Origin: Staphylococcus phage vB_SauM-UFV_DC4
Reading direction: 5' to 3' (one strand)
Length of the DNA: 64,000 nt
Sequence record: MZ779063.1
Shown: positions 28,141 to 29,110 of the stretch, piece after piece
How positions within the stretch are numbered: the stretch's first letter is position 1
Layout of the letters: each line of letters begins with the position of its first letter
Notes under the pieces: model-generated
What the model saw: only the letters and a program-made list of their open reading frames with translations
Told to the model about the DNA's origin: nothing
Database searches by the model: none
Made by a program: the position numbers and the translations under genes

Positions 28141-29110
28141 AACTATATAAAATAGATCATATGAATACGTATGATCTTAATTAAATTATATGGTCATTAC
28201 CATATATTTGCGGATCCATTGAACCTAGGCTTTGACGAAGCATAGAGTTCATTGGATCCTATCATTATATTGTCTGTTTAATATTATATTTAATTATCTT
28301 CTTAAATTTTGATTATTATATGAATTATATTTTATTATAAAGCTATATCTTATTAAATTAAGATAATCGTATGAATACGTATGATTTAAATTTATTTACT
28401 AGCAAAATAATTTTTCCAAAATTATTTTCTTATTTGATGATACCACCCTCTGCAGGGAATCTTTTCATAAAGTTTCCCGCAGAGGAGGTTCTAGTCAAAC
28501 ATGTTTGTTTATAATAAAATAAGATTTTTAACTTAAAGTTTTTCTATAATTAATTTATAGGCATTATATGAATACGTATAATGATTATTTATTTATGTGT
28601 AGAAATATGTCCTGATGCCTGTCAGCATCTGGGCTTATTTCTCGATTATATCATATGCAGCTCGGCCCGCTTCCTTATTACTTATGAAGCCGCCTAGCTG
28701 CATTGTATATATTTGTTGGTTTAAGTTAAAAGTTTTAATTCGATTTAAAGTTATTCTATAATTAATTTATAGACATTATATGTATACGTATAATGTAATA
28801 ATTATTTATAATCATTACCATAAATAAATCTCTACGTTTCAACTCCTTCTTTATTATTAAAGAAGGAGGAACACGATAGATCTATTTATCTTTGTTTAAA
28901 TCGAAATTATTCTCTCTATTAGTCATTCTATAATTAGCTTTATAGACATTATATGAATACGTATAATGATTTTAGAATCGTATCCTATTCATTATATTTA
29001 CTCTGCTTTATTTTCGGTGTAATGATTTCTTCATTACACTCCCAGCTGGGACCATTCTTCTCTCGTTCGAAAACCACTTACTCTTTCATCAGGTCCCAGC
29101 TAAAAATAAA
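28141..29110. repeat. array of five ~165-215 bp units, each a conserved ~40-nt box plus a unit-specific G/C-rich hairpin; candidate structured ncRNA array, or iteron-type origin/packaging region
   Basis: Box consensus CTATAATTAATTTATAGRCATTATATGAATACGTATAATGA, core at 28161-28175, 28371-28385, 28568-28584, 28780-28796, 28952-28968. Hairpins at 28212-28259, 28442-28489, 28614-28629 plus 28658-28701, 28843-28868, 29016-29038 plus 29043-29100. Confidence 0.8.

Follow-up and report, generated by a model that had tools for sequence, protein, structure and literature searches.

A probable tandem array of five retron-type non-coding RNAs beside a retron-family reverse transcriptase gene in Staphylococcus phage vB_SauM-UFV_DC4

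The locus and its repeats

In the genome of Staphylococcus phage vB_SauM-UFV_DC4 (sequence record MZ779063.1) we analysed a stretch of 64 kb, hereafter the window, with a mean G+C content of about 25%. A 110-aa open reading frame (ORF) ending at 27972 forms the upstream border of a non-coding gap that is filled entirely by an array of five repeat units, from a promoter at 28040 to the last pairing arm (a2) of unit 5 at 29144 (Table 1). Some 100 nt 3' of the array lies a gene for a retron-type reverse transcriptase (RT), which the original prediction, a description of the repeats drawn from the DNA letters, had overlooked. A retron msr-msd RNA comprises the inverted repeats a1 and a2, a priming G that ends a1, the msr stem-loops, and an msd hairpin that serves as the template. 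In our judgement the 1.1-kb gap is probably a natural tandem array of five different non-coding RNAs (ncRNAs) of this msr-msd type, all served by the one downstream RT.

Matches were counted on both strands of the window, with shuffled sequences as the chance control. The core motif TATGWATACGTATRAT is present five times on the + strand without a single mismatch (at 28160, 28370, 28567, 28779, and 28952), and its only other match in the window, antisense and with two mismatches, falls inside the palindromic unit 4; the chance expectation is 0.89, and none of 100 shuffles reached six matches. A repeat search returned a single five-copy family with spacings of 210, 197, 212, and 173 nt. The five-unit repeat of the original prediction is thus real, albeit with amended contents. 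The 40-nt box CTATAATTAATTTATAGRCATTATATGAATACGTATAATGA, ascribed to every unit, is carried by units 3 to 5 only (the first loop of unit 5 reads TTAGCT within it), while units 1 and 2 have other stems around the same loop. Unit 1 does not start at 28141 but about 65 nt earlier (a1 at 28075, G at 28085), owing to an insertion of about 40 nt in its first stem-loop. The G/C-rich hairpins said to follow each box do exist, with z-scores of -4.3 to -7.4 against dinucleotide shuffles; their stems have ca. 60-70% G+C, but the whole hairpins only ca. 50% and the whole msd regions 23-39%. A clustered regularly interspaced short palindromic repeat (CRISPR) array was rightly excluded, since the units have a period of 173-212 nt, the repeats are 63-94% identical, and there is no cas-like gene nearby; the exclusion of a ToxI-like element was likewise correct. 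ARAGORN found no tRNA gene in the window, and Rfam gave no match at the gathering score, and at relaxed thresholds only matches at chance level (E >= 0.87).

Table 1. Coordinates of the predicted features at the array locus (positions in the window)
Feature	Extent	Strand	a1	Invariant G	SL1	SL2	msd region	msd hairpins	a2	Remarks
AR9-type early promoter	28040..28059	+								AAATATATATAAT-N6-G; predicted start G28059
Unit 1 ncRNA	28075..28286	+	28075-28084	28085	28090-28154	28155-28176	28177-28275	28212-28259	28277-28286	SL1 with ~40-nt inserted hairpin; msd hairpin z-score -6.1
Unit 2 ncRNA	28328..28521	+	28328-28341	28342	28347-28364	28365-28385	28386-28506	A+U hairpin; G+C hairpin 28442-28489	28508-28521	Hairpin z-score -6.6
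Unit 3 ncRNA	28523..28734	+	28523-28537	28538	28543-28561	28562-28583	28584-28718	28601-28642; 28654-28708	28720-28734	
Unit 4 ncRNA	28739..28905	+	28739-28749	28750	28755-28773	28774-28795	28796-28893	28831-28880	28895-28905	
Unit 5 ncRNA	28908..29144	+	28908-28918	28922	28927-28946	28947-28968	28969-29131	29016-29040; 29044-29101 (38-nt open loop)	29133-29144	Hairpin z-scores -7.4 and -4.3
Terminator-like hairpin and T-run	29179..29220	+								Between array and RT gene
Putative retron-family RT gene	29252..30754	+								500 aa: N-terminal domain of ~200 aa and RT domain
Partner gene	30756..31580	+								274 aa; directly 3' of the RT gene

RNA structure of the units

Written as RNA, the box consists of two neighbouring stem-loops, SL1 (for example CUAUAA-uuaau-UUAUAG) and SL2 (for example CAUUAUA-UGAAUACG-UAUAAUG). 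The five units of the window were compared with each other and with 42 units from nine related phages. The loop of SL2 is constant and its stems vary with compensation, as in AUCAUA/UAUGAU, AAUAUA/UAUAUU, AAUUUC/GAAAUU, and AAUUUU/AAAAUU. In an alignment of 29 distinct unit cores, covering the 14 pairs of SL1 and SL2 (402 cells), 98.8% of the cells are standard pairs and 11 of the 14 pairs have changed on both sides; these values were matched by none of 500 shuffles, and sliding one partner by 1-3 columns left 27-53% pairing. Covariation across homologous phages had been proposed as a check on the structures, and for these stems it is evident. Several positions are G.U on the + strand only, where the other strand would read A.C, so the structure belongs to a + strand transcript, of the same sense as the RT gene. 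The box is a pair of covarying RNA stem-loops and neither a promoter nor an iteron.

The two DNA-level readings that had been offered for the box, namely five promoters of the sigma-70 type built on its TATAAT, or iterons with hairpins at an origin or packaging site, have thereby become very improbable. The units are repeated and partly palindromic, as such elements would be, and a promoter scan did find TTTATA-17-TATAAT in units 3 to 5. The region as a whole, however, has 22 promoter-like sites against 18.8 +/- 4.3 after shuffling, and TATAAT is simply the 3' arm of SL2: elsewhere it is replaced by TATGAT, TATATT, GAAATT, or AAAATT, with the 5' arm compensating. Not being conserved as a sequence, it is not a promoter element. 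Moreover a1, which lies 5' of the box, must be inside the transcript to pair with a2. What is conserved is base pairing, including the + strand G.U wobbles (A.C mismatches on the other strand), and not a double-stranded sequence; the cumulative GC skew has no turning point at the array; and the elements always accompany the RT gene, even where relocated as in Listeria phage LPJP1. The suggestion that the units encode structured small RNAs stands, without a promoter of its own for each unit.

The flanks of the box have the remaining parts of a retron RNA. An invariant AG (context A(A/U)AG) lies 4-6 nt 5' of SL1 in 29 of 29 distinct sequences, and the 10-14 nt before this G form a1, complementary to an a2 beyond the G+C-rich hairpin region. 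Across the window, LY01, SA1, and Machias, a unit's own arms form duplexes of -5.6 to -11.6 kcal/mol and foreign pairs mostly of -1.5 to -6.9, with two exceptions among the cross comparisons; anchored pairing amounts to 10.7 of 12 positions for own arms and 7.2 of 12 for crossed ones. In 15 of 18 combinations (the three exceptions are units of the unit-5 type) the nucleotide before a2 is a G, mostly within UUUG or UUGG, which gives TTTGTTTAA at the junction. Unconstrained minimum free energy (MFE) folds of units 2 to 5 show the a1/a2 stem, the unpaired G, SL1, SL2, and one or two long hairpins, and the units of SA1 and Machias fold likewise. A covariance model of SL1 and SL2 retrieves exactly the five units from the window (E 1e-9 to 3e-3), its sole extra match being weak, antisense, and inside the palindromic unit 4. 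All 19 msd regions of four divergent phages are structured (z-scores -2.3 to -8.6, mean -5.6); consensus folding over three Staphylococcus clades recovered only a1/a2, SL1, and SL2, as MAFFT fails to align the msd parts.

The individual units agree with this layout. Unit 1, delimited by the consensus fold of six orthologues and its a1/a2 duplex (the covariance model matches 28126-28178), looks aberrant because its SL1 holds the 40-nt inserted hairpin; in phage MarsHill the insertion is absent and the stem is kept in plain form. The MFE folds of the other four are closed by a1/a2. The two arms of unit 2 form a duplex of -9.8 kcal/mol, whereas pairing with the a2 of other units gives -2.8 to -5.3 (covariance-model match 1e-07), and units 3, 4, and 5 reach -10.4, -10.0, and -10.6 kcal/mol (matches 4e-09, 1e-09, and 3e-09). 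The consensus fold of unit 3 in 10 phages keeps a1/a2, SL1, and SL2, with a compensatory change in a1/a2; the msd hairpin of unit 4, a unit missing from the Machias group, has three compensatory pairs among six orthologues; and in unit 5 the G stands in UAUUAG in place of UAAAG.

Small proteins starting at the AUG of the conserved loop are the least probable account of the units that we considered. Two ORFs of 47 and 54 aa (28371-28514 and 28953-29117) begin exactly at the loop ATG, and the records of Madawaska (L002, 2744-3331, CPT_Madawaska_205-207) and LY01 (L007, 3615-3770, WRM43424.1) annotate small coding sequences inside the array. The five equivalent ATGs, however, open ORFs of inconsistent length (unit 3 stops after some 15 codons), close relatives differ by indels of 1 and 2 nt that disrupt the frames, and the conserved parts are compensated stems rather than codons. 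The small coding sequences annotated in the related genomes overlap covarying stems and are probably spurious.

The reverse transcriptase and its partner gene

The RT protein is identical (100%) to UFVDC4_00113. The coordinates published for the endolysin and RT genes of UFV_DC4 are offset from those of the window by exactly 96,000, which makes the window positions 96001-160000 of that genome or of a near-identical one. The ORF of the RT is open from 29240, and the homologues begin at MFKF (29252). Its product matches RVT_1 of Pfam (6e-21) and 36 retron RT profiles of PADLOC (4.9e-38 to 1e-21), the best being RT_II-A (4.9e-38) and Ec107-like (6.8e-34), followed by XIII, III-A, and I-C. It carries the YADD motif (VYADDITF), the retron-specific NAXXH (NADYH), and ITG, a variant of VTG with I for V. 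A sequence search of the PDB gave six retron RT sequences and one far weaker group II intron RT. With an AlphaFold2 model built from 11 homologues (mean predicted local distance difference test, pLDDT, 77.6), the 11 best Foldseek matches were retron RTs (type I-A, Eco7/Ec78, Eco2, and Ec83), and DRT2 and DRT9 followed at ranks 23-27. Profiles, motifs, and modelled fold all place the predicted protein in the retron family. The N-terminal ca. 200 aa are another matter. Among 1.84 billion representative proteins a single relative passed E<1e-10; Pfam gave no match and PADLOC just a weak one (PDC-S02, 5.8e-4).

These results bear on a second way of using such RNAs, in which the RT would copy them by priming from a 3' end, from a protein, or in the rolling-circle or concatemeric manner of DRT2 or DRT9. 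The RT fits no defined retron type and has its extra N-terminal domain, and the DRT2 and DRT9 enzymes do appear in the fold search. They rank, however, well behind the retron RTs, which occupy the top 11 places of the fold search and lead the sequence search as well; the NAXXH and VTG-like motifs are retron-specific; and an a1/a2 stem with an adjoining invariant G is the hallmark of retron priming. We hold templating by a non-retron route to be improbable.

In all Staphylococcus phages, as in the metagenomic contig L130, the RT gene is followed by a homologue of the 274-aa partner (a family of 274-291 aa). The partner matches nothing in Pfam or PADLOC; only close homologues could be retrieved, and its single-sequence AlphaFold2 model (pLDDT 36) is unusable. 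It may be an accessory or effector protein. An unrelated second family holds the position after the RT gene in the contig L131 (587 aa, 5526-7289) and in LPJP1 (661 aa, 4940-6925); these two proteins are 37% identical over ca. 450 aa, again with no match in Pfam or PADLOC. With two unrelated gene families in this place, the module of RT and array pairs with at least two different partners.

Linkage of RT and array across phage lineages

The region 27900-29300 is 95.8% identical to phage S6, 87-96% to PALS_2, Madawaska, MarsHill, and LY01, and ca. 67-72% to SA1, Machias, PB50, and AH12. These are jumbo phages similar to AR9 and PBS1, with two multisubunit RNA polymerases and uracil-substituted DNA (bioRxiv 10.1101/2020.12.14.422802; PMC10303552). 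Throughout the S6 group (RT identity 86-100%) and in SA1 (59%) five units lie upstream of the RT gene, whereas Machias, PB50, and AH12 (ca. 53-55%) have four, unit 4 being the missing one. Two metagenomic jumbo-phage contigs extend the series: L130 (RT identity 44%), with three units whose SL2 loops read UGAAAGCG, UGUAAGCG, and UGUUAGCG, and L133 (64% over 55% of the query), with 3-4 units, three of which the covariance model finds although they were absent from its seed. More distant are L131 (38%), in another gene neighbourhood, with about nine units of the same layout in a 1.6-kb gap and an SL2 of the form xxAAG-UUU-CUUxx; L138 (30%, E 1e-40), with about five units and an SL2 of CCAUG-N4-CGUGG; and LPJP1 (36%), where at least four units follow both the RT gene and the 661-aa gene, with the box GAUUAAUAUGUGA-UGUAAUCG-UCACUAAUC and with a1/a2 and the G in every unit. 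For L131, L133, L138, and LPJP1 the number of units is an approximation. The a1/a2 arms are present in L131, LPJP1, L130, and L133, and a G follows a1 in the units of LPJP1 and L131. In all lineages but L131 the apex of SL2 consists of A-U, U.G, and G-C around a variable tetraloop (AUG-N4-CGU). This conserved linkage over the lineages indicates that RT and array belong together.

No relative of the RT was found in IMG/VR, and a scan of viral contigs with the 14-mer ATATGAATACGTAT gave just single chance matches per contig. One further contig from a metagenome scan, L137, is cut at its RT gene. A distant RT relative on L139 (34% identity, 452 aa, without the long N-terminal domain) has two 77-nt repeats upstream, 879 nt apart (600-740 and 1496-1620), each before a separate ORF, an arrangement unlike that of the arrays above. 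In LPJP1 (L134), tblastn gave two places that match the RT; the array region is 6926-8132 and the promoter-side region 3185-3355.

Expression signals

The early promoters of AR9, used by its virion RNA polymerase, follow the consensus AAATATATATTAT-(6N)-G+1 (PMC5312081), and the sequence at 28040-28052 agrees with it in 12 of 13 positions; the predicted start, G28059, lies 16 nt before a1 of unit 1. The variant AAATATATAT[T/A]AT is present six times in the window against 0.64 expected, every time with a G exactly 6 nt further 3' (1122(-), 11321(-), 28040(+), 33609(+), 41714(+), and 51428(+)). The same promoter variant (…ATAAT-N6-GAAG) stands upstream of the arrays in SA1, L130, and L133, and that of L138 is preceded by a comparable AT-rich motif with a G six bases later. 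In LPJP1 an AR9-like early motif, TTTATATATTAT-N6-G, lies directly before the RT gene, which, with the array downstream, suggests an early operon of RT, partner, and array. The simplest reading of these signals in the window is one early transcript of ca. 1.1 kb spanning all five units, likely started by the single AR9-type early promoter upstream of unit 1.

Several of the predicted +1 Gs in the window lead straight into a near-perfect hairpin, for example GTATAGAAATATAATTTCTATA after 33609 and GAGGTAATGACATTAGCTTGTCATTACC after 51428, so early transcripts may begin with 5' hairpins. A hairpin family earlier likened to terminators, GGTAATGA...TCATTACC, is found at 27980-28006, 42138-42165, and 51449-51474 (0 expected); as the 51449 copy comes right after a predicted early start, the family is not solely a terminator. 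The right arm TCATTACC had been reported from several units, and it is indeed present in units 1 and 4, where these half-copies form small stem-loops in the msd regions; unit 5 holds a related hairpin, GTGTAATGA...TCATTACAC.

The hairpin between array and RT gene has a 14-bp stem followed by TTTATTTTTT; L130 and L133 have an equivalent hairpin with a T-run before their RT genes, and the Machias record annotates another. That a terminator-like hairpin separates the two, and that LPJP1 places its array differently relative to the RT gene, lends some plausibility to a reading in which the units are structured RNAs that are never reverse-transcribed and act instead as stable decoys or regulators, with the RT or other proteins as their binding partners or targets; covariation, after all, proves RNA structure and not templating. 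Against this reading stand the full retron layout (a1/a2, the G after a1, and UUUG at the template start) in every unit and every lineage, the co-occurrence with a retron-family RT in eight further lineages, and an SL2 apex that tracks the RT lineage. We regard this account as unlikely, though it is the strongest competitor to a templating array.

Conservation of the msr and msd parts

Compared with four phages of the S6 group, the msr parts of the window are 94.5-98.8% identical (85.8% in MarsHill, a value lowered by the deletion in SL1 of its unit 1) and a2 is 97.4-98.7% identical, against 88.9-96.9% in the flanking protein genes. With identities above those of the flanking genes, the msr and the a1/a2 scaffold are evidently under strong constraint. 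The msd parts are just 82.5-93.8% identical and retain their hairpins, which argues that the putative templates drift or diversify and yet keep these structures. The hairpin loop at 29054-29091 in the msd of unit 5 is unpaired and pyrimidine-rich over its 38 nt and comes in two sequence versions, one shared by the window, S6, PALS_2, and AH12, the other by Madawaska, MarsHill, LY01, Machias, and PB50. This distribution cuts across the phage phylogeny and suggests either exchange between phages or selection on the segment.

Several ideas on what the msd regions contain were tried and rejected. As copies or antisense of other phage sequences, the msd cores had only A+T-rich chance matches in the window. 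As for mimicry of host sequence, in a narrow test two conserved 20-22-mers (from the unit 5 loop and the unit 1 hairpin) had no exact match in 185,579 species genomes. A decoy for restriction enzymes was considered, as unit 1 has GGATCC twice and units 3 and 5 have GGNCC; the phage, however, shows no strong avoidance of GATC (156 sites against 191 expected), and the excess of G+C-rich sites in the array is due to the G+C-rich stems. The unit 4 msd hairpin at 28843-28869, CUCCUUCUUUA-uuau-UAAAGAAGGAG(G), contains a perfect Shine-Dalgarno sequence and its complement, and unit 2 has GAGGAGGU, which S6 and Madawaska have not. The Shine-Dalgarno-like GGAGG in these two hairpins, unconserved in S6 or Madawaska, was judged incidental.

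Proposed mechanism and possible roles

As far as a retron can be recognised in sequence, its features all appear to be in place: an RT of the retron clade, a1/a2 arms, the G after a1, and msr and msd hairpins. If the units are indeed retron ncRNAs, the virion RNA polymerase would start at G28059, as its motif suggests, and the transcript would end at the hairpin 29179-29220 or partly pass it. Each unit, as folding and covariation show, folds alone, with a1/a2 as the closing stem, SL1 and SL2 as the msr, and one or two G+C-rich hairpins as the msd. The RT would recognise SL1 and SL2, an assumption founded on the change of the SL2 apex with the RT lineage. By analogy with retrons it would then prime on the 2'-OH of the invariant G after a1 and copy from the conserved UUUG 5' of a2 into the msd hairpins, and the products would be five distinct hairpin-shaped multicopy single-stranded DNAs (msDNAs) from templates of 98-163 nt. 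As the DNA of this phage group has U for T, the msDNAs would probably contain deoxyuridine (dU) instead of thymidine.

Several points weigh against an array of working retron RNAs. Within the msd, close relatives show modest covariation, with 0-3 compensatory pairs in each unit and several apparent pair breaks, partly alignment artefacts. The top PADLOC profiles (II-A, Ec107-like, XIII, III-A, and I-C) score alike, so that no retron type stands out, and the lineage-specific N-terminal domain of the RT is unusual. Co-expression of array and RT is not guaranteed with the terminator-like hairpin between them. Position alone, by analogy with retrons, assigns the branch G and the start of the template. 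The a2 arm of one unit overlaps or adjoins the a1 arm of the next, which on one long transcript may cause competition in folding or a need for processing. Finally, in known retrons each RT has a single ncRNA and the system serves abortive infection in bacteria, and a role in a virulent phage would be unprecedented to our knowledge.

As to function, a role early in infection seems most likely. The msDNAs may be nucleic-acid decoys or sensors that counter host defence or repair, or they may, perhaps jointly with the partner protein, help to exclude competing elements such as other phages and satellites. A more specific proposal, which we put forward only tentatively and consider rather doubtful as it stands, is that this lineage of virulent uracil-DNA jumbo phages (of Staphylococcus, Listeria, and metagenomic relatives) uses a retron offensively. 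One early RT would serve from three to about nine templates, and the distinct hairpin msDNAs, probably with dU, would target host defence or repair during host takeover as decoys, inhibitors, or sensors, in place of the toxin-antitoxin function that bacterial retrons have in abortive infection. It is much less likely that the msDNAs compensate for a missing inhibitor of uracil-DNA glycosylase (Ung). No Ung inhibitor is known from the uracil-DNA phages of Staphylococcus and Listeria, a situation described as a paradox (PMC10303552), while AR9 and PBS1 encode the inhibitor Ugi and AR9 is without the RT (bioRxiv 10.1101/2020.12.14.422802; PMC10303552). A search of one phage collection detected the RT in Staphylococcus phages and in Listeria phage LPJP1 and in no Bacillus phage. 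However, phiR1-37 also has no known inhibitor and yet gives no RT match, which counts against such a substitution, and this comparison of RT and Ugi has a tiny, phylogenetically confounded sample.

If the array is what we take it to be, one retron RT can serve many templates in nature, and phages have taken retrons for their own ends; the array would be conserved in strictly lytic phages over an RT divergence down to ca. 30% identity. It would offer a directly testable handle on the role of reverse-transcribed DNA during infection, and may bear on the survival of uracil-DNA phages without a known Ung inhibitor. For biotechnology, its compact natural msr/msd scaffolds with distinct a1/a2 arms could be mutually compatible parts for the multiplexed production of single-stranded DNA.

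Comparison with known systems

Bacterial retrons such as Retron-Eco1 (Ec86), Eco7 (Ec78), and Eco2 (Ec67) resemble the phage system in the family of their RT (by profile, motifs, and fold), in the closing a1/a2 stem, the G after a1, the msr stem-loops, and the msd hairpin or hairpins, and in a conserved gene that is apparently in operon with the RT gene. They differ in having one ncRNA per RT, against five here and three to about nine in the relatives. In addition the phage system resides in a virulent jumbo phage, apparently under an early phage promoter, its RT has the N-terminal domain of ca. 200 aa, and its partner matches no known retron effector.

The retronphage phiR73 (Retron-Ec73) is a temperate P4-like element with a single msr-msd that is defence cargo for the lysogen. 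It too is a retron on a phage-related genome, but here the ncRNAs form an array in a strictly lytic uracil-DNA jumbo phage. DRT2 and DRT9 likewise combine an RT with an adjoining structured template ncRNA. Theirs is a single ncRNA without the architecture of a1/a2 plus G and yields concatemeric or homopolymeric cDNA, and their RTs are more distant, at fold ranks 23-27 against 1-11 for retron RTs. The diversity-generating retroelements (DGRs) of phages also have a phage-encoded RT with an RNA template nearby, but the RT described here falls in the retron clade and not in that of the DGRs, and no second copy of the G+C-rich msd cores, in the style of a template repeat (TR) and variable repeat (VR), was found in the window. 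Korn et al. also reported no TR, VR, initiation of mutagenic homing (IMH) site, or Avd (bioRxiv 10.1101/2020.12.14.422802). The same authors noted the retron-like RT and 'hypothesized' an ncRNA in the 1,200-bp non-coding region upstream, giving no structure for it and seeing no effector (bioRxiv 10.1101/2020.12.14.422802). The paper on UFV_DC4 treated the RT only in terms of DGR-like switching of host range, and that on PALS2 does not mention it.

The closest counterpart of the arrangement itself is synthetic. Engineered 'multitrons' combine several retron ncRNAs or msds in an array on a single transcript, which one RT then copies into DNA (PMC10370050), and since such arrays work with a single RT, the natural arrangement is mechanistically feasible. 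Multitrons are built from Eco1 for genome editing, whereas the phage array is natural and each of its units has its own a1/a2 and msr. In the full-text literature searched we found no description of a natural retron with several ncRNAs or of a retron in a virulent phage, though the wider literature may hold one; the 'retron arrays' encountered there were engineered multitrons every time. Set beside these known systems, what appears to be new for a retron is the array of templates, the phage host, the unusual N-terminal domain of the RT, and partner proteins that match no family in Pfam or PADLOC.

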